A stretch of 64,000 nt of DNA from an uncultured bacterium (GCA_964539305.1 CAZIIM010000003.1:17700-81699), one strand, 5' to 3'. Counted from the stretch's first letter, positions 6,896 through 64,000 are shown. Translations and numbers: made by a program. The notes: generated by a model not told the origin, from the sequence alone.

Positions 6896-6896
6896 T

Positions 6897-10961: not shown

Positions 10962-12121
10962 AAAGCGACCCCCGGTTCATTGGGCTGGATGGTGGTGCCT
11001 CCAAAGTACGAGGAGTCGTAATAAAAAGTCTGGGATCTGACACATTCATTGCGGATTCGGAGGCAGTAACGCGGTCCTATTCGGAATCGAAATATTATCT
11101 TCCTGAATTCCAACCGGTGAATCTCACCCAACAACTAGAAGATTTTGAAACGGGCTCCATTAACCCAACCCCAGATGAAACTCGCCAGGAGACAGCAATT
11201 GTCCAGTCATTCACAGCCGTGATCCAGCGCCTGGCCGAACAGCACCCGGTCCAGATTGGGATTGGTTTACCCGGCCTTAAGACAAAATCAGGGACCGGTA
11301 TCGCTGTCATGGTCAACGGACCGCGAATGCCCCATTTTATCCAACGATTAACTTCTGAATTAAACCGATCCGGAATTCTGTTAGACGGTCCCCCGGCTCC
11401 AATTGGTAATGACAGCGATTTGTGTGGATTGGGCGAAGAGTTCACCCGTGAAGGGAATTTCAGGAGCGTGGCGAATGCCTACTATTTGGGTGGTGGTACC
11501 GGAGCCGCGGAAGCATTGAAAATATCAGGAGTATTAGTACCCTTCACGGCCGCAGGAGACTGGATGCCTAAATTGTGGGAGTTAGAAGATGAAAACCGTA
11601 TTCCGCTGGAGCATTATGCCTCCATGGAAGGAATTCAATCCCTGTATGCGAAGGAAAAAAGGCAGGATCTACCAAACCCAACCGCTATTGCATCCTTGGC
11701 AATGGAGGGAGATGGTTTCGCCCAAAATTTGCTGGAACGCATTGCCAGACAGCTTGCCAGGATTATATATGAACGAATTGTGACCCTCTACTCCGGTTGG
11801 CAGAATCTTTTTTACCCGCGTTCCTTCGCCAGACGGAAGCTAATACAGGAACATCCTTACAGAAATTCCATCTTGAACCGTATTGTGATTGGGCAGCGTC
11901 TGGCCACCCTGTTTCAACAGTCACAAGGAACTGGAATTTTACATTCACCCCTATTGAAGGAATTGAAAAAATTGATTTCCGGCTGCCCATTTCTTCCGGA
12001 AAAAGCAAAACAATTCTACGAAACGAATCTGGAAAAGGATTTTATACGCTTCTCTGAACTCCACATCGCCCCCGCCCTGGGAGCCGGAATTCACGCCTGG
12101 CAACATTGGAAAAAATCATGA
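10958..12121 (+). CDS. BadF/BadG/BcrA/BcrD-type ATPase; putative GlcNAc/MurNAc kinase
   Basis: ASKHA phosphate motifs IGLDGGASKVRG and YLGGGTGAAE. The start overlaps the nagZ stop by 4 nt (ATGA). Confidence 0.6.
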   Translation: MKSDPRFIGLDGGASKVRGVVIKSLGSDTFIADSEAVTRSYSESKYYLPEFQPVNLTQQLEDFETGSINPTPDETRQETAIVQSFTAVIQRLAEQHPVQIGIGLPGLKTKSGTGIAVMVNGPRMPHFIQRLTSELNRSGILLDGPPAPIGNDSDLCGLGEEFTREGNFRSVANAYYLGGGTGAAEALKISGVLVPFTAAGDWMPKLWELEDENRIPLEHYASMEGIQSLYAKEKRQDLPNPTAIASLAMEGDGFAQNLLERIARQLARIIYERIVTLYSGWQNLFYPRSFARRKLIQEHPYRNSILNRIVIGQRLATLFQQSQGTGILHSPLLKELKKLISGCPFLPEKAKQFYETNLEKDFIRFSELHIAPALGAGIHAWQHWKKS

Positions 12122-13440
12122 CAGGACTGGTAACAGGAAAAATTCCTGCCTCAGAACCAATAATACGCGTAGGAGTAATTTTACCAGAGGACTCCCGTCG
12201 GGAATTAAACCTGCAATTGGCGTTACCCCCTGCCTTTACTTTACAAACAGAGACTACCCGTGTGAAGGGGAATTCCCTGCCGGAAAAATTGCATCTTACT
12301 ATTGAGAACCATGCTTTAAAGGTTGAAGGAATTAGCCTGCCTGAAACACAGGCACTCCGGGTTATCCCGGATAATCAAGCCTTGAACAAATCGGCCATCC
12401 ATATCGACTCTATTCCCGCCGGGAGGGAATTCCACTGGCAAAAATCAATTTCAGTCGCTTACCGGGGAGCGATTCATGTCAAAATTGTGGAGGATCAACT
12501 GGTAGTAATCAATGCCCTGCCTCTGGAAACCTACCTCCAGTGTGTGGCCACGTCGGAAATGAATGCTGCCTGTCCCAAAACACTGCTGGAAGTACAGACC
12601 ATTGTAGCCCGGTCCTGGATTCTGGCCAATGTTGAACAGAAACACGCCCACCTGGGAATGGAAGTGTGTAATGACGACTGCTGCCAGCGTTACCAGGGGA
12701 TTAACAACCAAACACTGGAGGCAATCGAAGCCAGCCGTAAAACAGCCGGAAAGGTTCTAATCTACGACAATAAAATCGTGGACGCCCGTTACTCCAAATC
12801 GTGCGGCGGTATGACCGAATGTTTTGAAAATGTCTGGCCCGGCCCCCCTCAACCCTATTTTAAAAATATACCTGATATACCGGGAAGTGAATCGTTCCCT
12901 GTCCCCGATTTAACCCAAGAAGAGGCTTTTCGAAAATGGATCCGGTTTCCCCCAAAAGCATTCTGTGGTCCTGATACCGTGCCTGATACAATGCTTAGCA
13001 CCTACCTGGGCAGTGTGGATGAACACGCTACTTATTACCGCTGGAACTATCAATGTACCAGCGAGGCGCTGGCTGAATTACTTCGGGAAAAAGGCCATTT
13101 GGACGTTAAACATGTGGATAATCTCACTCCTTTGGAACGGGGTGGGTCTGGTCGAATCAAAGCCTTAAAAGTTGAATTCGTTACGTCCCGGGATAACCGG
13201 GAGAATGTGATTATTGAAAGCGAGTACGAAATCAGGCGGGTTCTGCACCCGAAATTCCTATTCAGCTCTGCTTTCCTGGTGGAGCATCTTCCTGATGCGT
13301 TCCTTTTTCGAGGTGCAGGATGGGGACATGGAGTAGGCCTGTGTCAGATCGGGGCACTGGGAATGGCTTTGAAAGAATATTCCACCGGTGATATTTTGCG
13401 CCACTATTATCCTGGAACAGAACTGAAAAACATTTATTAA
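12118..13440 (+). CDS. SpoIID/LytB-domain protein (lytic transglycosylase-like)
   Basis: ARYSKSCGGMTE and WGHGVGLCQIGA motifs typical of SpoIID. The ATG at 12118 forms an ATGA overlap with the upstream stop. The TTG at 12106 is the alternative start. Confidence 0.7.
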   Translation: MTGLVTGKIPASEPIIRVGVILPEDSRRELNLQLALPPAFTLQTETTRVKGNSLPEKLHLTIENHALKVEGISLPETQALRVIPDNQALNKSAIHIDSIPAGREFHWQKSISVAYRGAIHVKIVEDQLVVINALPLETYLQCVATSEMNAACPKTLLEVQTIVARSWILANVEQKHAHLGMEVCNDDCCQRYQGINNQTLEAIEASRKTAGKVLIYDNKIVDARYSKSCGGMTECFENVWPGPPQPYFKNIPDIPGSESFPVPDLTQEEAFRKWIRFPPKAFCGPDTVPDTMLSTYLGSVDEHATYYRWNYQCTSEALAELLREKGHLDVKHVDNLTPLERGGSGRIKALKVEFVTSRDNRENVIIESEYEIRRVLHPKFLFSSAFLVEHLPDAFLFRGAGWGHGVGLCQIGALGMALKEYSTGDILRHYYPGTELKNIY

Positions 13441-13457
13441 GAACGGAACCGGAACGG

Positions 13458-15302
13458 ATGGAACTACAAGTTATTGATTGGGCGATTATTCTAATTTATA
13501 TCCTGTTCTCTTTGGGTATTGGAATCTTTTTTACCAAACGGGCCGGTGCCAGTACGGAAGAATATTTTCTCTCAGGCCGTTCCCTGCCCTGGTGGATTGT
13601 GGGGACCTCCATGGTGGCCACGACTTTTGCCGCCGATACGCCGTTAGCCATTACGGAATTTGTCCGTCAGGACGGCATTTGGAAAAACTGGTTTTGGTGG
13701 AATATTCTCCTATCCGGTCTGCTGGCCACGTTTCTGTTCTCAAGACTCTGGCGGCGGGCCAAAGTGCTTACGGATAACGAATTGCTGGAACTGCGGTATA
13801 CAGGAAAACCGGCCGCTTTTCTGAGAATGTTTAAAGCGGGTTACTTTGCCCTCTTATACAATTTTATTGTGATGGGATGGGTCATCAATGCCATGGCCTC
13901 TGTGGCCGCAGTGATGTTAAATATTGACCGTTGGACTGCTGTCTGGGGGTGCGTATTGATTGCCCTGCTCTACGCCCTCCTGTCTGGTTTCTGGGGGGTG
14001 GTTATTACCGACTTTGTCCAGTTTGGAATCGCCATGGCCGGGTCGATCATACTGGCAATCGTGGCCGTAAATTCCGTGGGAGGCATGGACACTGTCCTAG
14101 CTAAAATTAATGCCATGAGTGCCGCCGGGACCATTTCCGATGGCACCCTGAAATTCATCCCACCCCTGCCCGATGCCAATATTGTAACGCGCTCATTCTG
14201 GGAATCACCTTTCTCTAAATTTATGATTTTTCTAACCGTTATGTGGTGGTCTCACCACAATACGGACGGGGGCGGGTACATCATCCAGCGCATGTCTGCC
14301 GCTAAGGATGAACGGCATGCCCTTCTGGCTACCCTCTGGTTCAACCTGAGTAACTATGCCTTTCGCGTCTGGCCCTGGGTCGTGGTGGCCCTGGTTTCGA
14401 TTGTTGCCTTTCCCGACGTCTCCGGTTGGGAACTGGGAGACAAGGTGGGCTATCCTCTGGTCATGCAAAAATTTCTGGGTCCCGGGTTAAGAGGGCTGCT
14501 GGTAGTGAGTTTTCTGGCGGCCTTCATGTCCACTATCGATACCCACCTGAATTGGGGGGCCTCCTACCTGATTAATGACGTTTACAAACGCTTTATCCGG
14601 AAGAATGATTCTTTCACCAACCCCGATCAGGCCCAGAAGCATTATGTTCTGGTGAGCCGGATTATTACAGTTTTTCTCATGCTCTTCGCAGCTCTGGTAG
14701 CCATAAAAATGCAGAGCATCTCCCGTGCCTGGGAATTTATTTTCGCCATGGGTGCCGGGATTGGACTGGTCCTCATTCTCCGCTGGTTCTGGTGGCGAAT
14801 TAATGCCTGGACCGAAATTTCAGCCCTGCTCACTTCACTCACATTGACCGTCATGTTGGAAGTGATTGCCGCCTATCAAACACTCCAGGCCGGTGAAACC
14901 TATACCCTTTTTGGAAAGGCACCTGTATTATTTGGCCTCCCGCTCCAGATTCACCACAAGCTCCTGATTATTGTACCCATTTCTGTCCTCACTTGGCTGA
15001 TTGTCACCAAATTGACGCGGCCGGAACCGAAAGAAGTCCTGATGGCATTTTATGAGCGGGTTCAGCCGGGAGGCTGGTGGGAACCTGTCATTGGAGATTT
15101 CACTGCCACCAAGAAACCAGTTTCCAAGGGATTTGTTCAGAACTGGCTGGCAGGTATTTTAATGATTTACGGCGCCACATTTTCCATTGGACAGTTCGTT
15201 TTCGGCCATACCGGATATGGAATTACCCTGGCACTGGTGGCGGCAGCCGGCTTTTTCTGGGTCTGGAAATTCACCTTGAATCCAGAGAAAAAAGCAGCCT
15301 GA
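13458..15302 (+). CDS. Sodium:solute symporter family transporter
   Basis: 614 aa and multi-TM, with the N-terminal EEYFLSGRSLPWW motif typical of the SSS family. Confidence 0.8.
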   Translation: MELQVIDWAIILIYILFSLGIGIFFTKRAGASTEEYFLSGRSLPWWIVGTSMVATTFAADTPLAITEFVRQDGIWKNWFWWNILLSGLLATFLFSRLWRRAKVLTDNELLELRYTGKPAAFLRMFKAGYFALLYNFIVMGWVINAMASVAAVMLNIDRWTAVWGCVLIALLYALLSGFWGVVITDFVQFGIAMAGSIILAIVAVNSVGGMDTVLAKINAMSAAGTISDGTLKFIPPLPDANIVTRSFWESPFSKFMIFLTVMWWSHHNTDGGGYIIQRMSAAKDERHALLATLWFNLSNYAFRVWPWVVVALVSIVAFPDVSGWELGDKVGYPLVMQKFLGPGLRGLLVVSFLAAFMSTIDTHLNWGASYLINDVYKRFIRKNDSFTNPDQAQKHYVLVSRIITVFLMLFAALVAIKMQSISRAWEFIFAMGAGIGLVLILRWFWWRINAWTEISALLTSLTLTVMLEVIAAYQTLQAGETYTLFGKAPVLFGLPLQIHHKLLIIVPISVLTWLIVTKLTRPEPKEVLMAFYERVQPGGWWEPVIGDFTATKKPVSKGFVQNWLAGILMIYGATFSIGQFVFGHTGYGITLALVAAAGFFWVWKFTLNPEKKAA

Positions 15303-16426
15303 TGGTCGAAATGAAAGACCGACTTGTCTCCCTGGATGCTTTCAGGGGACTGACCATTGCTTTCATGATTCTGGTCAACACGCCCGGCAGCTGGGCCCAT
15401 GTCTACCCGCCTCTAAGGCATGCCCACTGGCACGGCTGCACCCTTACCGACCTGGTCTTTCCCTTTTTCCTGTTCATTGTGGGCGTCGCCATGCGCTTTT
15501 CACTCCCAAAGTACACAGCCCAATCCAAGGCAGCGGCGGTAAAGAAAATTCTGGGTCGCACGCTGACTATTTTTCTGATTGGACTCCTGCTGAACCTCTA
15601 TCCATTTATCCGGCAGGACTGGGACTGGTCTCATCTCCGGATTATGGGCGTTCTGCAACGCATTGCCCTGGCTTATGGCTTGGCGGCACTAACTGTTTTG
15701 CGCTTTAAACCAAAGCAGTTGGTCACTCTTATCTTCGGTCTGCTTCTGGGGTACTGGCTATTGTTACTGGTATATGGATGGATGACGGGGGTGGACCCCT
15801 ATGGTCTTGAAACCAACCCCTGCCGCTGGCTGGACCTTCGAATATTTGGCCCGGATCACCTCTGGCATGGAACCGGTATTTCCTTTGATCCGGAGGGACT
15901 TCTCAGTACCATTCCCTCCATCGCCACAGTCCTTTTTGGCTTTCTGGTGGGCAATCTGCTTTATCATGCCAATGATCGGGTAGCAAAAGCCCGGCAGATG
16001 GCACTTTTAGGTGCTGTTGCAACCATTATCGGATGGCTCTGGGGTCTCCTATTTCCAATCAACAAACAATTGTGGACCAGTTCCTACGTGCTCTTTACGG
16101 GTGGAATAGCCACCATGTTACTGGCCTGTTTTTATTGGCTGATCGATATTAAAGGTTGGAAAAAATGGGCGTTTCCTCTGGTGATCTTCGGGACCAATTC
16201 CCTGTTTATTTTTGCCGGTTCAGGTGTGTGGGTTAAAACGATCCTGAGAATACGCTTCACCCTGGACGGACATACGGTTTCAGGATACGCCTATCTATAT
16301 AAAACCGTATTTCAACCCCTGGCCGGGGATTTAAACGGTTCGCTCCTGTTTGCCCTTTTCCATGTTTTCATGTGGTGGTTGATTCTGGCCTGGATGTATC
16401 GGAAAAAAATCTTCGTCAAAATTTGA
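15302..16426 (+). CDS. HGSNAT-like (DUF1624/DUF5009) transmembrane acetyltransferase-family protein
   Basis: MVEMKDRLVSLDAFRGLTIAFMILVNTPGSW...HAHWHGCTLTDLVFPFFLFIVG matches the heparan-alpha-glucosaminide N-acetyltransferase-like family signature. The ATG at 15302 overlaps the upstream TGA. The listed 15077 start is only an in-frame extension inside the upstream gene. Confidence 0.65.
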   Translation: MVEMKDRLVSLDAFRGLTIAFMILVNTPGSWAHVYPPLRHAHWHGCTLTDLVFPFFLFIVGVAMRFSLPKYTAQSKAAAVKKILGRTLTIFLIGLLLNLYPFIRQDWDWSHLRIMGVLQRIALAYGLAALTVLRFKPKQLVTLIFGLLLGYWLLLLVYGWMTGVDPYGLETNPCRWLDLRIFGPDHLWHGTGISFDPEGLLSTIPSIATVLFGFLVGNLLYHANDRVAKARQMALLGAVATIIGWLWGLLFPINKQLWTSSYVLFTGGIATMLLACFYWLIDIKGWKKWAFPLVIFGTNSLFIFAGSGVWVKTILRIRFTLDGHTVSGYAYLYKTVFQPLAGDLNGSLLFALFHVFMWWLILAWMYRKKIFVKI

Positions 16427-16490
16427 CCACCCGTACCCGTTTTCAACAAATCGCCATTGTAACACCTCAGCCAGCAACTCTGCCAAAGGA

Positions 16491-17246
16491 ATGAAACGAT
16501 CACCCACCAGAATTTTCATCACCGGTGCTTCCACCGGAATTGGTAAAGCACTGGCCCTTTCCTATGCCGGAGAGGGGGTATCCCTGGGGCTTCTGGCCCG
16601 GAGAAAGGAATTACTAAGTTCAGTAGCCAGTCAATGCGAACAACAGGGAGCAGAAACCAAGTGTTATCCTCTGGATGTTCAAGATCAACAAGCGGTCGCT
16701 GAAACGGCAAAGGACTTCGTTAATCAATTTCAGGGAATCGATCTGGTGATTGCCAATGCGGGAATCGGGGGCCATGATGATATAATCCACGGGGATGCTA
16801 CGACCATTAACCGTATCATCGACATTAATCTGAAAGGAGTCATCAATACACTGGTTCCATTCATTCCAACCATGAAAAAACAATCGGGGGGAACTTTGGT
16901 GCTGATCAGTTCAGTAATGGCCTTTCTGACCATGCCCTACCACGGAGGATATTCAGCTGCTAAAACAGCACTGGTGCGGCTGGCGGACAGCTGGCGCCCC
17001 ACCTTGAAGCGATACCATATTCAGGTGACCACAATCTGTCCCGGTTTTGTCGATACTCCCATGATCGAAAAACAAAGCAACAAGGTTTTTCTCGTCCCAG
17101 TAAATGAAGCGGCGATAAAAATCAAACGAGCGATTCAGAGAAAAAGAAAAACGTTTATATTCCCCTGGCAGGTCAAATTCCTACTGCCCCTTCTCCGGAG
17201 GATTCCCCTAAGCCTTTTCGAGAGTAGGACAAATAAAAAGAAATAA
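16491..17246 (+). CDS. Short-chain dehydrogenase/reductase (SDR)
   Basis: TGASTGIGKALA cofactor motif and the YSAAK catalytic motif. Confidence 0.8.
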   Translation: MKRSPTRIFITGASTGIGKALALSYAGEGVSLGLLARRKELLSSVASQCEQQGAETKCYPLDVQDQQAVAETAKDFVNQFQGIDLVIANAGIGGHDDIIHGDATTINRIIDINLKGVINTLVPFIPTMKKQSGGTLVLISSVMAFLTMPYHGGYSAAKTALVRLADSWRPTLKRYHIQVTTICPGFVDTPMIEKQSNKVFLVPVNEAAIKIKRAIQRKRKTFIFPWQVKFLLPLLRRIPLSLFESRTNKKK

Positions 17247-53841: not shown

Positions 53842-54324
53842 CTAACTGGTGATTTCACTTATGATGGCAGCTACTACCTGATCCAGCTCGGCGGCGATCG
53901 CCTTTTCACCAGGATAACTATTGAGAAGTTGGAAGGGCATAAAGTAGCGGACGACGGTATTACCATTCGGCTTTTCCATGACGATAAATTTCAAAGGGAT
54001 TCGGATAGTAGCAGCTTGGTTAGCTTCCATCACGCGACGCATGTATTGAGGATGGAAATAGAAAATCTGTTTCATTCCCGGAACTTTTTTCCCGGCCATA
54101 CGGAGCATTTTCTGAGCATCAATCTCGTAAATCACCATCAGGTTCTGCTCTTCAATGGCCCCTTTCAAAATATCAACCGTTTCCTGAAACGAGTACTGGG
54201 ACATCTTTATTATCGATCCATCTTTCGGCATCATTTTACCATTCTGCGCGGCGGCAATTTGAAATACAGTAAAAACCGCTATAACCACGAATCCTTTAAT
54301 TCTGTTTTTGAACAGTTTATTCAT
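53842..54324 (-). CDS. DUF302-domain protein with signal peptide
   Basis: Signal peptide, then a ~130-aa domain with SFQETVDILKGAIEEQNLMVIYEID and a layout typical of DUF302. Confidence 0.5.
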   Translation of the reverse strand: MNKLFKNRIKGFVVIAVFTVFQIAAAQNGKMMPKDGSIIKMSQYSFQETVDILKGAIEEQNLMVIYEIDAQKMLRMAGKKVPGMKQIFYFHPQYMRRVMEANQAATIRIPLKFIVMEKPNGNTVVRYFMPFQLLNSYPGEKAIAAELDQVVAAIISEITS

Positions 54325-54376
54325 TTTTGTTCACCTTTTAAGTTTATTCGTTAAATCGGTCAGGACGGTCCCTGCT

Positions 54377-56020
54377 TCAGGTCGCACAGCAACTCAACTG
54401 TTTCACATTCTTACCAAAGGTAATAGCAGCCAGTTTAATGCCTTCCGAGAGGGTCAGGTAAGGATGAAACATTCCTACCAGTTCTTTCACGGTAATGCCG
54501 TACCTGATGGCCAGACTCACTTCCATGATCAGTTCCGAGCCTTCCGGAGCCAGAATGCGGGCGCCCACCAGTTTATCGGTAGCGCGGTCGCGGATCAGTT
54601 TTATGAAGCCCCGTGTATCCCGGGCGGCGATGGAGCGGGGCACCTGATCGAGGGTAATCGTGGAAGACTCCACATCGATTCCCCGAGCCTGGGCCTGAAC
54701 CTCATCCAGACCCACACCTGTCACCTGGGGATCGGTGAAAATGACCCACGGCAGCACGGAATAATCGGTTTTGTTTTTCTCCCCTTTTAGGGCATTCCGG
54801 GCAGCCAGTTTCCCTTCGTAGGCAGCTGTGTAAACAAACATATTCTTCCCGGTGACATCTCCCGCTGCATATACCGTGGAAACAGAAGTTTTCAGATCCT
54901 CATCGGTGACGATTCCTCCGTCTGCTCCTAATTCAACGCCGGCCTTTTCCAATCCCATCCGGTCAGCGTTGGGTGTCCGCCCCGCAGCCACAATGAGTTT
55001 CTCAGCCTGAAACGTTTTTATTTCACTCTTGACTCTGGATTCAACCACTATGTGCCCCTCCCGTTCGTAGACTTTAAGGAACTCATTTCCGGTGATAATG
55101 CACATATTTTCCTGTTCCAGGTAATTGGTAAGGGCATCGGTGAGGTCAGCCGTTTCGGTCGGTAAAATGCGGTCTGAACGTTGCAAAAGGGTGACCCGGC
55201 TTCCCAGGCGGGAAAACATCTGACCAATTTCCAGGGCAATGTAGCGTCCCCCCAGTACCAGGATAGATTCCGGGAGCTGTTCCAGTTCAAACGCGCTTTT
55301 ATTGGTGAGATAAGGGACATCGGACAAGCCCGGGATTTCTGGAATGTGAGGACGGGCGCCCGTGGCAATCAGGATCCGGTCCCCTTTCAGGGTTTTGCCG
55401 TTGACGCTCACGGTGGTTCCATTCACCAGTTCGGCCCGACCCTGAATCAGTTCAAACCCCTCCATTCCGGCTACAATATCCAGGTATTTTTTCTGGCGCA
55501 GGTCCTCCACCAGCGTCTGCTTCTGGTTCATGACAGCCTGAAAATCCCGGACTGACCCGCCGGTTTCTATGCCGGGGAAAGGGTTATTTCTGGAACGGTG
55601 GAGAGATTCCGCTGCCCGGATCAGATTCTTGGAGGGGACGCAGCCCACATTCACGCACGTACCGCCGATGGGCAGTCCGTCGTTGATCATGGTCACCCGG
55701 GCCCCTAGTTCCCGGGCTTCCAGCGTGGCTGCAAAGGCAGCGGAACCACCACCAATAATAATCAGGTGTTTTTGCGTTCCGTTGCTGGTGGTGTTTTTTT
55801 CTTGAAGGCCGGTGACTTTATAGTGGTCGGTGCCGTTGATTTTCCCCGCGATTACCTGCGCCGAAGTTTTTTCAGCGTCAAATTTTACTTCCGCGGAATG
55901 GTTGGGGAAACTGACCTGCTTAGCTAAAATGCCATCTGTTTCTAATAAATTACTTATGGTTTTGGCACAATGTTCGCAGGTCATGCCTTTAATGTTCATT
56001 TTAACCGTTTTTATATTCAT
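54377..56020 (-). CDS. merA: Mercuric reductase MerA with an N-terminal HMA (NmerA) domain
   Basis: GMTCEHCAKTI HMA motif, redox-active GGTCVNVGCVPSK, and a C-terminal CC pair (LSCCAT). The ATG at 56020 follows the merTP stop. The listed 56062 start overlaps merTP. Confidence 0.85.
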   Translation of the reverse strand: MNIKTVKMNIKGMTCEHCAKTISNLLETDGILAKQVSFPNHSAEVKFDAEKTSAQVIAGKINGTDHYKVTGLQEKNTTSNGTQKHLIIIGGGSAAFAATLEARELGARVTMINDGLPIGGTCVNVGCVPSKNLIRAAESLHRSRNNPFPGIETGGSVRDFQAVMNQKQTLVEDLRQKKYLDIVAGMEGFELIQGRAELVNGTTVSVNGKTLKGDRILIATGARPHIPEIPGLSDVPYLTNKSAFELEQLPESILVLGGRYIALEIGQMFSRLGSRVTLLQRSDRILPTETADLTDALTNYLEQENMCIITGNEFLKVYEREGHIVVESRVKSEIKTFQAEKLIVAAGRTPNADRMGLEKAGVELGADGGIVTDEDLKTSVSTVYAAGDVTGKNMFVYTAAYEGKLAARNALKGEKNKTDYSVLPWVIFTDPQVTGVGLDEVQAQARGIDVESSTITLDQVPRSIAARDTRGFIKLIRDRATDKLVGARILAPEGSELIMEVSLAIRYGITVKELVGMFHPYLTLSEGIKLAAITFGKNVKQLSCCAT

Positions 56021-56033
56021 CTTTATTTCTTTT

Positions 56034-56648
56034 TTAATGGACCGTGGATTCGTACCCGGCATTACGAGTGGCCTCTAACAGGTCTTTGGTGGAAATTTTA
56101 GTAGGATCGTATTTCACAACAGCAATCTTTTTTTCAAAACTGGCGGAGGCCTCGATGACACCGTCCACTTTTTTCAGGCTTTTTTGAATGGTCACGGGGC
56201 AGGAAGAACAGGTCATTCCCGGCACATCCAGAACCACTTCCCGCACCTGGGTATTAATCTGAATCGGTTCCTGGCTCTCGGAGTACACCATGGGCGTTAC
56301 ATAGGGAACCGCCAACAGACCACCGACAAAAAGAGTGACAACCCAGAGGGATATTTTGTTAATGCGGTCAGAGCGGGGGTTGGCACAATAGGAACCGGGA
56401 GCGCATTCCTCCGGTTTGGGTTTACTGTAAATCTTGTAGAAGGCATAACCAAGAAACAGGACTGTAAGCGCCATGAGGTAGGGGCGGAATGGTTCAAAAG
56501 CAGTCAGGGTGCCCACCCAGGCGCCACCGATACCCAGTCCCAGCAGGACCAGGGGTCCCACACAGCAAACAGACGCGGCCACCGCCGCCAGTACGGCACC
56601 AATGAGTCCCTTCCGGGAAGCTTTGGTTGGTTCAGTTTCAGAATTCAT
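56034..56648 (-). CDS. merTP: MerT-MerP fusion mercury transport protein
   Basis: The N-terminus matches MerT (AASVCCVGPLVLLGLGIGGAW...FEPFRPY...CAPGSYCA). The C-terminal ~70 aa form a MerP-like HMA domain (VPGMTCSSCPVTIQKSL). Confidence 0.8.
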   Translation of the reverse strand: MNSETEPTKASRKGLIGAVLAAVAASVCCVGPLVLLGLGIGGAWVGTLTAFEPFRPYLMALTVLFLGYAFYKIYSKPKPEECAPGSYCANPRSDRINKISLWVVTLFVGGLLAVPYVTPMVYSESQEPIQINTQVREVVLDVPGMTCSSCPVTIQKSLKKVDGVIEASASFEKKIAVVKYDPTKISTKDLLEATRNAGYESTVH

Positions 56649-56706
56649 ACAGGCTCCAAATTTTAGGGGTTGCTATTCATTAGATACCCTGTACCAAAGT
56701 ACCGGG

Positions 56707-57123
56707 TTACAAATTTTTTCCATTATTTTTTTCAAAAGCATCCAGAATCGGGCATTCTCCCACGGGACCCACCCCGACGCAGCTGGCTACCAGATCCTTT
56801 AATGCCCGCCTCATTTGATCCAGTTCCTGAATTTTCTCCTCAATAACCTGAATCTTGTGCTCCGCCCGGCGTCGCACATCATCACAGGTACAATCAGGGT
56901 CCACCCGCAGGTGGAGCAGTTCCTTAATCTCATTCAGGGAAAAACCGTGCTTTTTGGCCATTTGAATAAAGCGTAATCTCCGTAGGTCCTCTTCCGTGTA
57001 AGAGCGGTACCCGGAAGGTAAGCGCGTTGGTTGGGGCAGAATGCCTTTCCGTTCGTAAAACCGGATTGTCTCCAGATTTACATGGGCCTGTTTGGCCAGG
57101 GTTCCAATGGTAAAACCATTCAT
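56707..57123 (-). CDS. merR: MerR-family Hg(II)-responsive transcriptional regulator
   Basis: MNGFTIGTLAKQAHVNLETIRFYERKGILP HTH motif and conserved Cys residues (CTCDD, ...ASCVGVGPVGECP). RBS AAGGAG lies 5 nt before the ATG at 57123. The listed 260-aa ORF is an unsupported N-terminal extension. Confidence 0.8.
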   Translation of the reverse strand: MNGFTIGTLAKQAHVNLETIRFYERKGILPQPTRLPSGYRSYTEEDLRRLRFIQMAKKHGFSLNEIKELLHLRVDPDCTCDDVRRRAEHKIQVIEEKIQELDQMRRALKDLVASCVGVGPVGECPILDAFEKNNGKNL

Positions 57124-57152
57124 TTTTCTCCTTTCCATGAATGAATATACTA

Positions 57153-57172
57153 CCCTGTACTTAACTACAGGG
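57153..57172 (-). promoter_or_regulatory. Putative mer operator dyad inside the merR-merTP-merA promoter
   Basis: On the minus strand: TTGCCC-TGTAGTTAAGTACAGGG-TAGTATATT. The dyad CCCTGTA-N6-TACAGGG sits between a -35-like TTGCCC and a -10-like TAGTAT (17-bp spacer) or TATATT (20-bp spacer). It lies about 30 bp upstream of the merR ATG. Confidence 0.55.
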
Positions 57173-57280
57173 CAAGGATTATTTTGATCATCCACAGTGG
57201 AGGCTGATTTGCTTATTAGAAACATTCGGCCTAAATTTTTCATGGTTTGTAACTTTCTTTGGTCTGATCGGATAGTAATC

Positions 57281-58702
57281 ATGAAAAAAATAACCTTACT
57301 TTTTATGATCTTTAATTTATTGCTGACTTTTTCCTGCGAGGATAAATCATCTGATACAACTCCTCCTGAGATTAAAGTGTCAAACCTTGAAAGTGGGACA
57401 CATATGTATGGAACTATCCTGGTTGAAGCGGATTCTTGGGATAAGGAGGGCGTTGAATATGTTGAATTAATCATTGATAATGCTCCCACAGGCGTTACCG
57501 ATAGTGTAGAGCCCTTTATTTTAGTCTGGAACTCAGATGATTATGAACTAGGCACTACCCACACCGTCCAGTGTAAGGCTTATGATATCCACGGTAATTA
57601 TCAAATGAGCGATCCGGTGGAAATTTTTATTGACGTTACCTTCAGGAGATCCTTCCCCATCGGTTCAGGGTATTGGGAACTCAAGAACACAGTCCAGCAA
57701 ACCGCAGATGGAGGCTATATCCTCACGGGTATAAAGAATGAGGACGTCTGGTTATTAAAACTGGATCAATTTGGGAATAAGCAGTGGGAAAAAACACTAG
57801 GTGGTTCGGCATCGGATTGGGGATCCTCTATTCAACAGACAACTGATGGGGGTTATATTATTGTTGGCAGAACCTACTCCTACGGTAACGGTCAATTTGA
57901 TGTCTGGCTGATTAAGACCGATAACACTGGATCGGAGGAATGGAATAAAACTTACGGTGGCAATGACGATGATTGGGGATACGTCGTACAGGAAACTATG
58001 GATGGGGGCTTTATTCTTTCGGCTGGTTCTAAATCCTTCAGTACCAACAAGGCTGCTGACATTTGGTTGATAAAAACTGATAAAAGTGGGAATGAAGTTT
58101 GGAACAAAGTTTTAGGTACCAATTATTTAAACGCCTGGCGGAACTCCGTCCAGCAGACGAAGGATGGCGGTTACATTACTTATATGGGAATTTTTAGTCT
58201 GACTGGAAATATGGATGATGTCCAGCTTGTCAAGTTAAATGCCGATGGTCAGGAAGAATGGAGTACTATTTTAGGGGAGTCAGAAGATGAATGGTTCTTT
58301 GACATTCACAGGGTAATTAATGGAGGCTTAATCGCCACTGGAGCAAGAGCTAACGGAATGAACCGCGCTTGGTTAGTTAAGATCAGTAACGACAGCACTG
58401 TGGAATGGGAGCAAACGTTCGATTATTCAACAGGCCTATCCGTAGCTCAGACGGAAGACGAAGGTTACATTATGTCCGGATATTACCTTGATCCGTTGTT
58501 AGACTTTAAAATTATTTTATTAAAAACAGATACTTACGGTAACATGCAATGGACAAAAACATTCCCCGGGAAAGAAGGCAACGCCGTTCAACAAACAACC
58601 GATGGGGGCTATATTATTGCCGGTTTAGATGAATCAGGAATTGTCCTAATCAAGACCAATGCGGAGGGAAATGCAACCGATCATATTGAAGTTATAGAAT
58701 AA
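57281..58702 (+). CDS. Lipoprotein with an Ig-like domain followed by seven DGGY-motif repeats (probable beta-propeller)
   Basis: The ATG at 57281 gives MKKITLLFMIFNLLLTFSC (lipobox). Seven repeats of roughly W.KT.GG...D.G..VQQT.DGGYI..G......D.WL.K.D..GN follow. Confidence 0.6.
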   Translation: MKKITLLFMIFNLLLTFSCEDKSSDTTPPEIKVSNLESGTHMYGTILVEADSWDKEGVEYVELIIDNAPTGVTDSVEPFILVWNSDDYELGTTHTVQCKAYDIHGNYQMSDPVEIFIDVTFRRSFPIGSGYWELKNTVQQTADGGYILTGIKNEDVWLLKLDQFGNKQWEKTLGGSASDWGSSIQQTTDGGYIIVGRTYSYGNGQFDVWLIKTDNTGSEEWNKTYGGNDDDWGYVVQETMDGGFILSAGSKSFSTNKAADIWLIKTDKSGNEVWNKVLGTNYLNAWRNSVQQTKDGGYITYMGIFSLTGNMDDVQLVKLNADGQEEWSTILGESEDEWFFDIHRVINGGLIATGARANGMNRAWLVKISNDSTVEWEQTFDYSTGLSVAQTEDEGYIMSGYYLDPLLDFKIILLKTDTYGNMQWTKTFPGKEGNAVQQTTDGGYIIAGLDESGIVLIKTNAEGNATDHIEVIE

Positions 58703-58874: not shown

Positions 58875-59306
58875 ATGAAACGCCTACCTGAACTTCGTCA
58901 ACTTTCAGAAGATCATCATCATGGACTGGTGCTGGCCCGGAAGGCCCGCAGGGCAGGAACGGTTTCAAAAACACCTTCTATCACCGCCATCTGGGAAGAA
59001 GTTTTAGAGAAATTCAGGCTGGAACTGGAACCCCACTTTCTAATTGAAGAGCAGTACCTGGCGCCACCGCTGCTGGACTTAGGTGAAACTGAATTGATTC
59101 AGCGCTTTAACTTGGAGCACCGGCAATTACGGGCGTTAGTGAATCATCAAAATAACTGGTCTTTGACAGCTTTACACGCGTTTGGGAAACTGCTCGAAAA
59201 ACACATTCGTTTTGAGGAACGGGAGTTGTTTGAGGTCGCTCAGCGCCGTTTATCGGCGAATCACCTAAAAGCCATTCAGGAGGCGTACCGACCTCCAGAG
59301 AACTAG
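58875..59306 (+). CDS. Hemerythrin-like (HHE cation-binding) domain protein
   Basis: LSEDHHHGL...EPHFLIEEQYL...LEKHIRFEERELF pattern of His/Glu ligands; 143 aa. Confidence 0.5.
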   Translation: MKRLPELRQLSEDHHHGLVLARKARRAGTVSKTPSITAIWEEVLEKFRLELEPHFLIEEQYLAPPLLDLGETELIQRFNLEHRQLRALVNHQNNWSLTALHAFGKLLEKHIRFEERELFEVAQRRLSANHLKAIQEAYRPPEN

Positions 59307-59641: not shown

Positions 59642-61183
59642 TTATAACCTGTAATTCACGCTGGCATAGAGATACATAATCTGATAGGCCTTGTCATAGG
59701 TGTAATCACCTGAGAGAGAAAGATTCAAGCGTGAGAAAAAGCGCCGATTCACCCCCACGGAAAGGTGGTGTTGAATATAATCCGCCAGTTTATTCCCGTA
59801 ACCGTAACTGTAAAGATCATAATTGGCATTGTAATAAAATCCAGGGGTAAACTGTTTCCAGTATCCGATTTCCGCCCTGAGACCGGTTAACAGATCGTTC
59901 CGGAGAAAACTGGTACCGATCGAATAGGAAGACAGATTGGTTTTCTGGGGCGAACGGTAATCCAGTGAGACAAGAATCGCCGGACGGTACTCCGATTTCT
60001 GGGTACGAATGTTGGCCCCCAGGCGAAACGACCCCACATTGGAGCCGGTCCACCGAATGGAGGTGTATAATCCTGAACGGAGTTCATCCCGGAAAAGTGA
60101 ATCGGGTATGACCGCCCCTGTTTTCTGGTAAACCACCTGCCGTCTTCCCGTATAGCGGGTCTGGAGGATTAAACTTCTAAACGGCCGGTAAGAAACGGAC
60201 AACTGGGTGGAAGTGGGTGTGAATTGACTGCGGTTCCGGACCTGGCCATGGCGATACATGTCCACCGTCTGATTCAGGGAAAGGGCTAATTTACTTTTCC
60301 GATCCCGGCGCAAGGACCAGTACATGAATTCCCGGTCGGTTTTTCCACTGGCATACTGTCCCACCAGGGCCAGACTGGCCGTAGTCCGAACCTGGTCTTT
60401 TCGCCGGTTCAGGTGGAAATATCCACCAATTTTTTTCAGGTTGGGGTCAAAGGCCAGTGTTTTGGGATCCGGCTGAACCCCCGCCAGAACGCCTACAGAG
60501 AGGGAGGAAACAACCCGGGAACTGACCAAGAGGCCGTCTGTCGAACCAATACCGGGCATTTCCGGAGCAAAGACACGGCCGGCCTGGAGGTAAAAACGGC
60601 TTCCAACTCGGCCCAATGTCACCCGGGCCTGGTAAAGGCTAAAACTATTGTCCAGCGTATTACTGCGGCCGTAAAGCCATAAAGTTGTCCGCAGGGGCCC
60701 TCCGGATCGAAGACGATAGTTGATACTCCCGATACCCCGCGTGTCGGAGGTTTTATTAGAAAACTGACCACTGGTATAACGGAAACTGACGTTCCCGGTA
60801 CTGCTCCAGCGGGGCAGGCGTCGTTTGGTCCTTTTTTTAGGCGGTTCCACCACCGCTTCCGGTGGAGCCGATACTTCCAGTTCCGGGGCACTGGTTTTAT
60901 CTAGAACAACCCGGTCCCCCAGCTGAAAAGTGGAGGTGGGTACGAGTGACAGACAAACGGATGATTTCCGGGCTACATTGGTCACCACCACCAAGCCCAG
61001 TTCCTGGTCCCGCCGAAAGACCGTCATGGTATCCCCCACGGTGGCACCATTGTTACTCCCCAGATCACAATAAACCCGGTCCGCTGTCAGATAGGTGATT
61101 TTCCCCTCGGAGTGGACCCCGGTCTGACCCACCGCAGCAGCGATCAACACCAGACTCATCAGGAAATATAATCGTCTAATCAC
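59642..61183 (-). CDS. Predicted outer-membrane beta-barrel protein; putative porin partner of the upstream multihaem cytochromes
   Basis: A GTG start at 61183 gives the signal peptide VIRRLYFLMSLVLIAAAVGQ and overlaps the upstream stop (GTGATTAG). A soluble ~100-aa N-domain is followed by long runs of alternating-polarity strands. The protein ends ASVNYRL. Confidence 0.55.
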   Translation of the reverse strand: MIRRLYFLMSLVLIAAAVGQTGVHSEGKITYLTADRVYCDLGSNNGATVGDTMTVFRRDQELGLVVVTNVARKSSVCLSLVPTSTFQLGDRVVLDKTSAPELEVSAPPEAVVEPPKKRTKRRLPRWSSTGNVSFRYTSGQFSNKTSDTRGIGSINYRLRSGGPLRTTLWLYGRSNTLDNSFSLYQARVTLGRVGSRFYLQAGRVFAPEMPGIGSTDGLLVSSRVVSSLSVGVLAGVQPDPKTLAFDPNLKKIGGYFHLNRRKDQVRTTASLALVGQYASGKTDREFMYWSLRRDRKSKLALSLNQTVDMYRHGQVRNRSQFTPTSTQLSVSYRPFRSLILQTRYTGRRQVVYQKTGAVIPDSLFRDELRSGLYTSIRWTGSNVGSFRLGANIRTQKSEYRPAILVSLDYRSPQKTNLSSYSIGTSFLRNDLLTGLRAEIGYWKQFTPGFYYNANYDLYSYGYGNKLADYIQHHLSVGVNRRFFSRLNLSLSGDYTYDKAYQIMYLYASVNYRL

Positions 61184-61982
61184 CACCGGACCCCCCTGCA
61201 TGACAGTTGTAGCATCTTCGGCTTTCATATTTGTAATTACTCACTTCTCCACTGTGTTTCCGATCCATTTTGGACTGATCATGTTCGTGGCAGACGCCGT
61301 TTAAGCCGCAGGAAAAGTCGGTATAATCATCCGGATTGATATGACACTCCGCTTCACAGCTGCTCCAGGTTCCCCGGTGACTGCCGGTATATATAGGAAA
61401 GAGCAGATCATGATGGGACATGTCTGCCGGAACAAAGGCCCGGGTGTTATGACAGAGAATACAATTGTCATTGCTCCCGTGTTCTGCTTCATCCACCGCC
61501 CGGCTGAAGGCCTGATAATGACAGGCAGCACATTCGGTTGTCAGTACCCCCGAGAAAGCGGTGGTCTTCACCCCGTGACAATCTTCACAAGCTAGTTGGG
61601 CATGAACCCCCTCCAGGGGAAACATGGTGCGACTATGATTTCCCCGCCAGTTGGCCATGTCCCAGGTCTGGCTATTGTGACAGGTGGAACAGTCCAGATT
61701 AAAATCTCCGGAATGAATGTCCATATGGCAGGCCTGACAATCCTTGCTGATGCGGTCAAATTTATGAATATCTTCCACCCGGGGGCCTTCGTGGCACTGA
61801 ATACATTCGGCAGACTGGTGACGGCCTTTCAGGGGGAAGTCGGTGGCGTCGTGATTAAACGCCATGGGAGCAGCCAGGGGCATCCAGGCCTGGGGAGAAT
61901 GGCACTGTTCACAGGGAATCTCCGTTAAAGTATCCGATACGGCCAGCGTGAGAAACCCGGCCAGCAGTGTACTCAACATCAT
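61176..61982 (-). CDS. Multihaem cytochrome c (8 CXXCH plus 1 CX3CH motifs)
   Basis: Signal peptide MMLSTLLAGFLTLAVS. Haem motifs: CEQCH, CIQCH, CQACH, CSTCH, CEDCH, CAACH, CILCH, CEAECH, CYNCH. The ATG at 61982 overlaps the upstream stop (ATGA). Confidence 0.8.
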   Translation of the reverse strand: MMLSTLLAGFLTLAVSDTLTEIPCEQCHSPQAWMPLAAPMAFNHDATDFPLKGRHQSAECIQCHEGPRVEDIHKFDRISKDCQACHMDIHSGDFNLDCSTCHNSQTWDMANWRGNHSRTMFPLEGVHAQLACEDCHGVKTTAFSGVLTTECAACHYQAFSRAVDEAEHGSNDNCILCHNTRAFVPADMSHHDLLFPIYTGSHRGTWSSCEAECHINPDDYTDFSCGLNGVCHEHDQSKMDRKHSGEVSNYKYESRRCYNCHAGGSGGD

Positions 61983-63724
61983 GGCTGACTCCAACGCGGA
62001 CCGATTTTAAGATGTTCCCGCCAGTCAAACTGCTGAATCCGGTCTTCCCCTCCTTCACCTCCGCCACAATCATTTTCATTGCCGTTGGGATGGCACTGGA
62101 CACATTGAGGGTCGTCAGCAGCATTGGGATTGAAAGTAACGGTCACCCCATTGATGGTACAGGATTTCCAGGTGCCCCCTTCCGAATGTTCGTTGGCAAC
62201 ACCCTGGTGACAAGGACTGAGGGTGCAGGAGAAGGTGGGCGGTCCATAGGGGTTGAGATGACAACTGGTGCAGGTTTCAGACCGGTCATTCTGATGGGGG
62301 CTGGGACTTATGGGGAACTGATGGCTGAAATTTACGTCGGTCCAGTCGGTCGTGGAAACATGACAGGTTTCACAGTTGGTATCGAGACTGATGGCCTGGT
62401 GATCCGGATCTGTAGTGGCGTTGTAATTCCCCAAGTGGCAGTTTACGCAGTCAGAGACAATTCCCTGGTGATCAAAACTGGCCCCCTGCCAGGTGTCAGT
62501 GCGGGTGTGGCAGGATTCACAAGTCTGGGTAAACCCGAAATTGGGATCATGGACCGGATCGGTGGCATTCGTGTAATCACTCAAATGACAATTGACACAG
62601 CCCGAAACGATGCCCTCGTGGTCAAAACTGGCGCCCTGCCAGGAATCAAACGTGTGATGACAGGATTCGCAGGTCTGGGTAAAACCAAGGTTGGGATCAT
62701 GGACCGGATCAGTAGCGTTGGTATAATCCTGAAGGTGACAACTGATACAGTCGGTCACAATGCCCTGGTGATCAAAAGCAGCCCCTTCCCATGTATCGGT
62801 GGCGGTGTGGCACCGTTCACAGTCTTGTGAATAGCCGATCGTACTATCGTGGACCGGTTTCGTGGCATTCACATAATCCGGTAAATGACAACTGACACAA
62901 CTCAGGACCAGGTCGTGCTGGTAGATGTGAGGTTCCCAGCCGAATTCGGAATGGCAAGCAGCGCACTCCTCTGCCGGGTAACCGTAATATTTATGATCCG
63001 GTTCATCGGTAGTATCGTAGACCTCCAGATGACAGTCCTGACAATCCGTAGGTAGATCGTATTGATTATCCACGTGACAATCGGCGCAGAGAACCGGCTT
63101 GTGGAGCCCGATCAAAGGGAAAGCGGTCAAATTGTGGTCGAAATTGGAAACCCAGGCCGGTGTCTTGTCTTCGTGGCAGCCTTGACAGTCCAGACTGAAG
63201 CCGGAGGCCACGTGATCCGGATTTTCTGCTCTCTCGTAATCGGCCCGGTGACAAGCGTAACATTCTGTCGGAGTGTAATCAAACCGGATCATGGGCTTTT
63301 CGGTATGGCACGCCTGGCAAGGGGCAAACCGGTGAGAGCCTTGGAGTGGAAAGACCGTTTTTTCATGGTTAAACGATTCCAGAATGACGGTCCAGGATTC
63401 AGGTTGATGACAGGCGGCACAATCGTTTCCCAGTGTTGTTTCATGGACGTCCAGATGACAATCGGCACACGATCCGGGTGTTTGAGAAAATTGATGCTTT
63501 TCCGCCAGGGTTGTTCCCTGATGACAGGCGGTACAGTTTTGAACCGTATGAGCTCCTACCAGTGGAAAGGCTGTTTTACTGTGATCAAAATCCCCCAGTT
63601 TTAAATCCCGCCAGTCCGACGAGCGGTGGCAGTCGCTACAGTCATATCCGCGGACTTGGAAAGATTCATTCTGCATGGCGGTGGGAAAGGACATGAATAC
63701 AATGAATAGCAAGAGGGGAATCAT
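61979..63724 (-). CDS. Multihaem cytochrome c with 20 CXXCH motifs
   Basis: Signal peptide MIPLLLFIVFMSFPTAMQ. I counted 20 CXXCH motifs in the 581-aa translation. The start overlaps the upstream stop (ATGA). Confidence 0.85.
   Translation of the reverse strand: MIPLLLFIVFMSFPTAMQNESFQVRGYDCSDCHRSSDWRDLKLGDFDHSKTAFPLVGAHTVQNCTACHQGTTLAEKHQFSQTPGSCADCHLDVHETTLGNDCAACHQPESWTVILESFNHEKTVFPLQGSHRFAPCQACHTEKPMIRFDYTPTECYACHRADYERAENPDHVASGFSLDCQGCHEDKTPAWVSNFDHNLTAFPLIGLHKPVLCADCHVDNQYDLPTDCQDCHLEVYDTTDEPDHKYYGYPAEECAACHSEFGWEPHIYQHDLVLSCVSCHLPDYVNATKPVHDSTIGYSQDCERCHTATDTWEGAAFDHQGIVTDCISCHLQDYTNATDPVHDPNLGFTQTCESCHHTFDSWQGASFDHEGIVSGCVNCHLSDYTNATDPVHDPNFGFTQTCESCHTRTDTWQGASFDHQGIVSDCVNCHLGNYNATTDPDHQAISLDTNCETCHVSTTDWTDVNFSHQFPISPSPHQNDRSETCTSCHLNPYGPPTFSCTLSPCHQGVANEHSEGGTWKSCTINGVTVTFNPNAADDPQCVQCHPNGNENDCGGGEGGEDRIQQFDWREHLKIGPRWSQP
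62327..62926 (-). repeat. Four tandem ~150-bp (50-aa) dihaem-module repeats inside the 20-haem cytochrome gene
   Basis: The protein units FDH.GIV.DC..CHL.DY.NATDPVHDP..GFTQTCESCH...D.WQGAS recur with a 50-aa period. At DNA level, caggattcac (62511) recurs as caggattcgc (62661), which is a 150-bp period. The two central copies (62477..62776) are the most similar. Confidence 0.8.
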
Positions 63725-64000
63725 CGAATATCACCCGTCAGTGTATGGCAGTCCACACAGCGATGGGGAACAGGTCGGTAACGGGTGAAAGTACTGACGC
63801 GGTCCATTTCTTTTCGATGGCATTTATCGCAGGCCACATTTCGATGCTTGCCGTCCAGGGGGAATTTGCTCTGGGCATGGTCGAAGTTTACGGCGGTAAA
63901 GGCTGAAGCGTTGTGACACTTTTCACACCGATTCCTAAAATGGAGCTTGAACTGACCCCGATGCACATCCTCATGGCAGAGGCTGCATACCGGGTCCCTC
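63721..64000 (-). CDS. Multihaem cytochrome c; 5' end outside the window
   Basis: The frame is open to the window edge (...RDPVCSLCHEDVHRGQF...). CSLCH, CEKCH, CDKCH and CVDCH are visible in 93 aa. Confidence 0.75.
   Translation of the reverse strand, partial: RDPVCSLCHEDVHRGQFKLHFRNRCEKCHNASAFTAVNFDHAQSKFPLDGKHRNVACDKCHRKEMDRVSTFTRYRPVPHRCVDCHTLTGDIR

Follow-up and report, generated by a model that had tools for sequence, protein, structure and literature searches.

Almost all electron-export routes known in Gram-negative bacteria are those of Shewanella, Geobacter, and related organisms, and quinol dehydrogenases form their first step. In the porin-cytochrome complexes (Pcc) of Geobacter, the porin-like proteins have 18-22 strands, and the systems feature atypical CX3-4CH motifs and a cytochrome partner with about 8 haems (Shi et al., PMC4245776). 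Passages of a more recent paper briefly mention a "giant PCC cluster" in a metagenome-assembled genome (MAG) of Lentimicrobium (Nat Commun 2026, PMC13013709). Here, we describe an operon of multihaem cytochromes and a beta barrel at the right edge of a 64,000-nt stretch of DNA from an uncultured bacterium (GCA_964539305.1 CAZIIM010000003.1:17700-81699; hereafter the window), whose genes were read by listing open reading frames (ORFs) and by direct translation. A preliminary description of this DNA had taken the operon for a porin-cytochrome-like extracellular electron conduit, and our computations on sequences and models support such an assignment. We consider it probable that the operon encodes an outer-membrane porin-cytochrome conduit. 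Judging by homology, its porin-cytochrome kind belongs to a large and essentially uncharacterised family of the Fibrobacteres-Chlorobi-Bacteroidetes (FCB) group that extends across Marinimicrobia and Bacteroidota.

Four overlapping ORFs lie on the minus strand at the right edge of the window: cytA (partial), cytB, cytC, and the gene of the barrel protein. The visible part of cytA (63721..>64000) has 92 open codons and four CXXCH motifs (CSLCH, CEKCH, CDKCH, and CVDCH). The next gene, cytB (61979..63724), encodes 581 amino acids (aa) with a signal peptide, 20 CXXCH motifs, and one CX4CH motif (CTLSPCH). It is followed by cytC (61176..61982), with 268 aa from its ATG, a signal peptide, eight CXXCH motifs, and one CEAECH. 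The barrel gene (59642..61183/61186) encodes 513 or 514 aa from a GTG and has no haem motif. Stop and start signals overlap as ATGA at 63721-63724 (cytA/cytB) and at 61979-61982 (cytB/cytC), and the cytC/barrel junction, GTGATTAG, contains both the TAG stop of cytC and the GTG start of the barrel gene. The preliminary description had listed these ORFs, the three junctions, and the motif counts, and all were found as it gave them; the CTLSPCH of cytB is an addition to its list. An alternative start of the barrel gene, the upstream ATG at 61228, would give 528 aa. The GTG at 61183 is the likely start, since the homologues begin with MIRK or MIKK and the window protein reads MIRRL... from this codon. 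Plus-strand ORFs across the same DNA (e.g., 61967..62830) were discarded as shadows of the cytochrome genes. The 335-bp gap between the barrel gene and a hemerythrin gene 3' of it showed no terminator-like hairpin.

The operon was expected to continue beyond the window, and related loci bear this out: in loci of the same lineage, a 17-haem cytochrome, an iron-sulfur (FeS) flavoprotein, and a di-haem-type membrane protein are encoded upstream. By comparison with them, the window carries what we read as the distal two-thirds of a six-gene operon, in the order membrane protein (289 aa), FeS flavoprotein (435 aa), cytA (17 haems), cytB (20+1), cytC (8+1), and barrel. Its three cytochromes together would hold about 47 haems. 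The computational evidence thus describes three Sec-exported cytochromes that are co-translated with a 22-strand outer-membrane barrel.

The barrel protein was modelled with AlphaFold2 from an alignment of 26 homologues (A1, also used as a profile). The model has a mean predicted local distance difference test score (pLDDT) of 79 and consists of a signal helix, a six-strand N-terminal domain, a disordered linker, and a 22-strand barrel. On the minus strand, the start and signal peptide correspond to 61121..61183, where the GTG overlaps the cytC stop and a helix spans residues 2-19. The small beta-rich domain (residues ~23-98, 60893..61120) has strands at 23-33, 37-40, 53-58, 61-71, 76-80, and 92-98. 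Then come a variable linker rich in Pro, Glu, and Lys (60809..60892), with pLDDT below 50 for residues 101-122 and poorly aligned in A1, and the barrel itself (residues ~127-514, with the stop codon 59642..60808), for which DSSP assigns 22 strands in residues 127-513. This fits a protein that had been described as having a signal peptide, an N-terminal domain, extensive beta strands, and a VNYRL end; the alternative of a soluble protein is not borne out. The N-terminal domain is conserved across the family (G-x-I-T-Y...GDTL-x-V), with invariant and near-invariant columns, and is presumably periplasmic. The C terminus is VNYRL in the window protein and GLNYRF in the family consensus, and we take an NYRF-type end to be a typical outer-membrane insertion signal.

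Which family this barrel belongs to is a separate question. A Foldseek search with the model retrieved outer-membrane barrels only (FimD usher, MOMP, and OprD/Occ porins), at template modelling (TM) scores of at most 0.46. The top 50 are generic barrels with no specific relative, and MtrB is absent from them. Scans of the 528-aa form with Pfam and NCBIfam gave no family at E values up to 1, N-terminal domain included, and the Lentimicrobium homologue likewise has no MtrB/PioB family match. The A1 profile against all PDB sequences gave a single chance match (E 1.1) and did not match the MtrB sequence. MtrB/PioB is represented in these libraries and in the PDB. Membership in the MtrB/PioB family was therefore rejected, as no model or sequence matches and the barrel has 22 strands versus 26-28. 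According to the model, the last protein thus forms an outer-membrane barrel, and its family is apparently undescribed, OmbB having been compared by description only. The composition of the operon is non-canonical, as had been proposed.

The cytochromes are of the c7 type. Twenty CXXCH motifs in the 581 aa of cytB stand against a roughly estimated chance expectation of ~0.001 at ordinary Cys and His frequencies. The complete cytA of the same lineage has 468 aa, 17 CXXCH motifs, and a signal peptide (L002:4357-5763; L numbers denote the loci surveyed below). Pfam Cytochrome_C7 scores 74.6 bits for cytB, 38.3 for cytC, and 66.6 for cytA, with a gathering cut-off of 24.8. In addition, cytA matches Cytochrom_CIII and Cytochrom_c3_2, and cytB matches Mtrc-MtrF_II-IV_dom above its cut-off (70.7 bits). 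Against PDB sequences, cytB weakly matches the pentahaem domain of MtrC (E 2.5e-5), cytA has no match, and cytC has one chance match. The decahaem MtrA/DmsE model TIGR03508 reaches only 40, 21, and 35 bits versus a cut-off of 192. With 37, 45, and 22 His for 17, 21, and 9 haems, cytA, cytB, and cytC have enough for all-bis-His ligation. Together with the c7-type haem modules, this leads us to regard them as wires rather than enzymes. The window cytochromes contain no CXXCK motif, and the Pfam and NCBIfam scans matched no NrfA, hydroxylamine oxidoreductase (HAO), or sulfite-reductase model, with NrfH alone appearing at E 0.02-0.1. A catalytic role as nitrite, sulfite, or hydroxylamine reductase (NrfA, HAO, MccA, or octahaem enzymes), an alternative open to the preliminary description, was thus rejected by family scans and motifs; only electron-transfer families were matched. 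In cytB, cytC, and the barrel protein, the signal peptide is free of Cys, so that none of the three is a lipoprotein, as had been noticed for the two cytochromes. Library scans and inspection of signal peptides revealed neither a lipobox nor a type IX secretion system (T9SS) sorting domain on the cytochromes.

Much of the variation between species lies in the second cytochrome. In cytB, residues ~254-475 (62300..62965, minus strand) form four near-identical tandem di-haem repeats of about 50 aa, with motif spacing alternating 26/24. The unit reads ...CxxCHLxDYTNATDPVHDPNxGFTQTCESCH... in nearly exact copies, and it is this region that grows or shrinks from one species to another. Orthologues of cytB have 16-37 haems in Marinimicrobia, and their equivalent in Bacteroidota has 13-70 in up to 1738 aa. 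In L023, L024, L047, and L083, the second cytochrome gene is a single ORF of 1337-1738 aa with 55-70 CXXCH motifs, with orthologues going down to 13. The 70-haem homologue matches TIGR04257 (nanowire_3heme) above its cut-off. The first seven haem motifs of cytC have the same spacing as the first seven of cytB, and cytC aligns with the C-terminal ~240 aa of the last cytochrome of the Bacteroidota loci. Across its whole length, the other cytochrome, cytA, shares 37-40% identity with the 20-haem cytochrome found in loci from Bacteroidota (40% in the case of L015). The atypical CX3CH and CX4CH motifs are retained in homologues of ~40% identity, and the CX3CH of cytC is kept in L007 and L009. An apparent loss of cytA in the JGI calls for L001, L003, and L005 proved to be a gene-calling artefact, since the ORF scan shows an intact 468-aa, 17-haem ORF in all three. 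The deposited calls give three to four short, mostly opposite-strand ORFs instead (L001:8194-9594, L003:3582-4982, and L005:1123-2523). In L011, cytA was apparently miscalled in the same way, and the intact ORF is present. Hence, automated annotation may under-report such cytochromes.

The barrel family is much larger than it first seemed. A word-indexed search gave 26 barrel homologues, labelled Marinimicrobia, Fidelibacterota, or FCB, in keeping with the FCB-like genome that had been suspected. A family restricted to Marinimicrobia, as these 26 suggested, was overturned by an exhaustive search with the A1 profile, which gave 1732 cluster representatives (clusters at 50% identity). This search shows a sharp step between the Marinimicrobia clade and a larger family of ~535-aa proteins that spans the N-terminal domain and the barrel. 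Among the carriers of the larger family are Lentimicrobium sp. S6 and a second lineage of Marinimicrobia, which each have the complete module, and A1 matches the Lentimicrobium cluster representative P0198 over its full length (E 3e-43). Species genomes, scanned next, yielded at least 535 stretches that match. Bacteroidota account for almost all of the best 80 (Bacteroidales, Marinilabiliales, Prolixibacteraceae, Draconibacterium, Lentimicrobium, and Mariniphaga sediminis SY21), and these 80 are biased to the Lentimicrobium-type subgroup, whose alignment (A4) was used for the scan. Relatives are present in hundreds of Bacteroidota species, and Tara Oceans data as well as many assemblies of ocean metagenomes contain the module too.

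Gene order was surveyed by ORFs and hidden Markov models (HMMs) in 95 loci, i.e., the Marinimicrobia loci and the best 80 of the at least 535 genome stretches. Wherever upstream DNA suffices, the order is membrane protein, flavoprotein, 17-20-haem cytochrome, 13-70-haem cytochrome, and barrel. The exceptions are L044, where the flavoprotein was not detected, and a few loci in which the ORF of the membrane protein is split. The order is retained in Lentimicrobium sp. S6 and in the divergent Marinimicrobia L007, L009, L012, and L013, at 37-49% barrel identity. Upstream DNA of at least ~350 bp is available for 93 loci, and in each of them a multihaem ORF lies directly 5' of the barrel gene, which ties the barrel family to cytochromes and leaves no room for the alternative that it never accompanies them. 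In 24 Bacteroidota loci (L031-L095) we also observed a conserved, N-terminally membrane-anchored protein of ~245-275 aa (e.g., 246 aa in L031). It is encoded directly 3' of the barrel on the same strand in 19 of the 24 and is absent from the lineage of the window. It could be a further component of the module.

The two genes at the start of the operon were read from six metagenome contigs with an identical cytB. Upstream of the end of the window, these contigs encode the 289-aa protein and then, after 65 bp, the 435-aa protein, whose stop overlaps the start of cytA. The latter is a flavoprotein. It starts with a membrane helix, behind which lies a strongly basic stretch, and it contains a 2x[4Fe-4S] domain together with an FAD/NAD(P)H domain that resembles YpdA/TrxR (Pfam Pyr_redox_3, 162 bits). 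Since the basic stretch follows the helix, the remainder of the protein is expected to be cytoplasmic. In L002, L007, L012, and L013, the stop codon of its gene runs into the start of the following gene; in L009, a short gap separates the two. Hydropathy and an AlphaFold2 model give the 289-aa protein some five membrane helices, plus a helical insert of ~120 aa on the cytoplasmic side. His93/His107 and His262/His276 are invariant in 40 sequences, 14 residues apart within each pair, and the pairs sit on the third and the last membrane helices. An N-in topology would put one His of each pair near each membrane face, which we take to be the classical arrangement for two stacked b haems. The Pfam matches of the family are below threshold (DUF4405 in 30/40, Ferric_reduct in 15/40, cytochrome b561 in 15/40; best E 2.5e-6). 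A Foldseek search of the model against the PDB found no structural relative (best E 0.66), and the profile of the family matched no PDB sequence. As Foldseek gave no match, we did not file the protein as a member of the ferric-reductase-domain family. Its sequence features make it likely to be of the di-haem transmembrane cytochrome b type. Some Marinimicrobia have an extra gene between the membrane protein and cytA. It encodes a 161-aa four-helix membrane protein in L007 (4544-5029), a 170-aa protein in L012 (11192-11704), a 163-aa Haem_bd (PF14376) protein in L013 (9867-10358), and a 272-aa FNR-like NAD-binding protein in L009 (4208-5026).

Taken together, the best explanation overall, which we favour with moderate confidence, is that the operon encodes a trans-envelope porin-cytochrome electron conduit with outward flow. 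Cytoplasmic NAD(P)H would reduce the membrane-anchored FAD/2x[4Fe-4S] flavoprotein. The two stacked b haems of the 289-aa protein would then carry the electrons over the inner membrane to cytA, in the logic of NADPH oxidases and ferric reductases. Such an input would differ from quinol dehydrogenases of the CymA, ImcH, or CbcL type. That electrons come from NAD(P)H via these two proteins and bypass the quinones is nearly an even call, leaning slightly to the doubtful side. At the outer membrane, cytC, or in Bacteroidota the module at the C terminus of the last cytochrome, could lie inside the barrel, as MtrA does in MtrB; encoded next to the barrel, cytC is the candidate for the barrel-inserted subunit. 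The variable cytochrome, with its 16-70 haems, could lengthen the haem chain into the periplasm, past the cell surface, or both. The acceptors would be Fe(III)/Mn(IV) oxides, humics, particles, or partner cells. For fermenters, this would be a sink that re-oxidises NAD(P)H and not a proton-pumping respiration. Fermentative Marinilabiliales reduce Mn and Fe oxides with genes that are unknown (PMC5760507), and Bacteroidota of anaerobic digesters express multihaem cytochromes (PMC7382037). The scheme in full, i.e., a quinone-independent, NADPH-oxidase-like extracellular electron transfer (EET) through the flavoprotein, the di-haem protein, c7-repeat "nanowire" cytochromes of up to 70 haems, and the barrel, is a tentative proposal.

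This explanation should be interpreted with caution, since several points weigh against it. It is computational, and neither the barrel family nor the family of the 289-aa protein has a characterised member. The di-haem assignment lies below the Pfam gathering thresholds and has no fold relative, and the 289-aa protein could instead be a quinol-oxidising cytochrome b. The placement of a cytochrome in the barrel is drawn from the analogy with MtrAB, and a 22-strand barrel is narrower than the 26-strand MtrB. The cytochromes carry neither a lipobox nor a T9SS C-terminal domain, so that their surface exposure is hypothetical. Many carriers are pelagic Marinimicrobia, whose habitat is poor in insoluble acceptors. 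Finally, the metal-resistance neighbours in the window, L009, and L011 hint at detoxification over energy metabolism.

The first of the resulting alternatives keeps the conduit and changes its source: the 289-aa protein would oxidise quinol, in the role of CbcL, ImcH, or CymA, and the flavoprotein would be an accessory for redox sensing, repair, or a side input. All characterised EET chains are reported to begin at a quinol dehydrogenase (PMC6295460). The 289-aa protein also weakly matches prokaryotic cytochrome b561 (Ni_hydr_CYTB), a family of quinone-reactive subunits. An accessory role sits poorly with the presence of the flavoprotein gene in nearly every locus with enough upstream DNA, and with its overlap with the next gene in the four loci named above. 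Moreover, a membrane anchor with cytoplasmic FAD/NAD(P)H and FeS domains fits a cytoplasmic donor to a transmembrane haem pair, and L009 has its extra FNR-like gene in the same slot. We regard a quinol-fed conduit as unlikely.

A second alternative reverses the outward flow that we favour. Electrons would enter from Fe(II), reduced minerals, cathodes, or partner cells, as with MtoAB and PioAB. Porin-cytochrome complexes are reversible in principle, and the parts list of MtoAB and PioAB is that of MtrAB (PMC4245776; PMC5566968). Yet the carriers are heterotrophs, largely fermentative (Lentimicrobium, Marinilabiliales, and Prolixibacteraceae; PMC13013709; PMC5760507). In addition, the reduction of NAD(P)+ from bis-His haems across an inside-negative membrane would be uphill, and genes for carbon fixation or of the Cyc2 type are absent from the surveyed flanks. 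These points make an inward conduit improbable.

A third alternative starts from the neighbourhood of the operon. In the lineage of the window, a mercury-resistance cluster adjoins it (window 53842-57489, minus strand, and beyond; L001:16180-21339), with genes for MerR, a MerT-HMA fusion, MerA (561 aa), DUF302, a 244-aa unknown protein, a thioredoxin-like protein, and DsbD. Past the window, the upstream neighbour of the operon is a gene of the YbjQ family (putative heavy-metal binding). In two unrelated lineages, efflux genes directly adjoin the module: in L009, CzcCBA (11625-16939) lies directly 3' and a MerR-family regulator directly 5', and in L011 a resistance-nodulation-division (RND) efflux system (2331-8298) lies beside the input genes. 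The module might accordingly use NAD(P)H to reduce toxic solutes (metals, metalloids, or oxidants), either periplasmically or at the cell surface, with the barrel mainly as a pore for substrate or product. A weak NCBIfam similarity to the selenite/tellurite proteins ExtN and ExtO points the same way, but the scores are ~20-42 bits versus a cut-off of 200. The metal-gene neighbourhood is not kept in L007, L012, L013, L014, and L015, and 33-90 haems per operon would be a costly means of detoxifying solutes. We hold this role to be very improbable.

A purely periplasmic electron store or "capacitor," followed by an unrelated porin gene by chance, is hardly credible: the cytochromes lack a lipobox or secretion tag, and c7-repeat cytochromes such as those of the GSU1996 family are periplasmic, but the barrel start overlaps a cytochrome stop, a cytochrome adjoins the barrel in 93/93 informative loci, and a 70-haem chain would by our estimate exceed the width of the periplasm (the 10 haems of MtrA span ~8 nm).

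Two further genes of the window lie beyond the end of the operon. The hemerythrin-domain gene (143 aa; 58875-59306, plus strand) is convergent with the end of the barrel gene. A 501-aa ORF (57197-58702, plus strand; 465-473 aa in the calls of related contigs) carries many copies of a QQT.DGGYI...G....D.WL.K.D..G. motif. It resembles a beta-propeller-type repeat protein, and the deposited calls give no Pfam match for it.

An outward, NAD(P)H-fed conduit would have broad consequences. The module would be a separate and very widespread solution to electron export, in lineages usually seen as plain fermenters or heterotrophs. If true, this would explain "fermentative" Fe/Mn reduction at the level of genes, and likewise why Bacteroidota become enriched on electrodes and conductive particles. 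For Marinimicrobia, a redox interaction with particles would become part of their ecology; in the literature on Marinimicrobia/SAR406, we found no paper linking them to multihaem cytochromes or EET. If the route is indeed quinone independent, fermentative and pelagic FCB bacteria would be a large overlooked electroactive class. The conserved input module is the most surprising part, if it works as proposed. With 13-70 haems encoded by one orthologous gene, nature has in effect run an experiment on wire length. Mariniphaga sediminis SY21 and Lentimicrobium sp. S6 are two carriers without a MAG label, and the idea is directly testable if cultures of them exist.

Among the known systems closest to the operon is the giant cluster of the Lentimicrobium MAG (PMC13013709), whose brief mention is the only one of this family that we found in print. 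It is very probably the Bacteroidota form of the same module, since the Bacteroidota loci surveyed, among them those of Lentimicrobium, share its pattern and are homologues of the window operon. The Marinimicrobia form differs in that its distal part is split into cytB and cytC and its first cytochrome has 17 haems. The passages on the giant cluster do not cover input genes, family distribution, or experiments. With the Geobacter Pcc systems (OmbB-OmaB-OmcB and ExtABCD), the window operon shares a barrel in the 18-22-strand range beside multihaem cytochromes, a partner of ~8 haems, and CX3-4CH motifs. The differences lie in order and parts. The Geobacter systems run porin, periplasmic cytochrome, outer-membrane cytochrome; here the porin comes last, no cytochrome is a lipoprotein, and the barrel has an N-terminal domain. 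Operons of the window type further include c7-repeat cytochromes of 17-70 haems, an FeS flavoprotein, and a di-haem-type membrane protein.

As in MtrCAB of Shewanella, MtoAB, and PioAB, cytochromes come first and the barrel after, with a haem wire threaded through the barrel as the proposed logic; cytB matches the pentahaem domain model of MtrC/MtrF and, weakly, MtrC itself. Unlike in MtrCAB, the barrel has no MtrB_PioB match and 22 strands instead of 26-28, and the operon has no decahaem member of the MtrA family and no lipoprotein MtrC. The proposed input resembles NADPH oxidases, ferric reductases, and MsrQ in its two His pairs on two helices, its cytoplasmic flavin/NAD(P)H partner, and the export of electrons. 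It departs from them in having five predicted helices and a ~120-aa insert, in its sub-threshold HMM matches and missing fold match, and in a flavoprotein that is TrxR/YpdA-like with 2x[4Fe-4S] and not FNR-like (L009 has an FNR-like protein in addition). Finally, the cytochromes recall the GSU1996-family and TIGR04257 "nanowire" cytochromes of Geobacter, with tandem c7-type modules in one long chain. Compared with the GSU1996 family, those of the window type are much longer, vary from 13 to 70 haems, and are always encoded together with a barrel.

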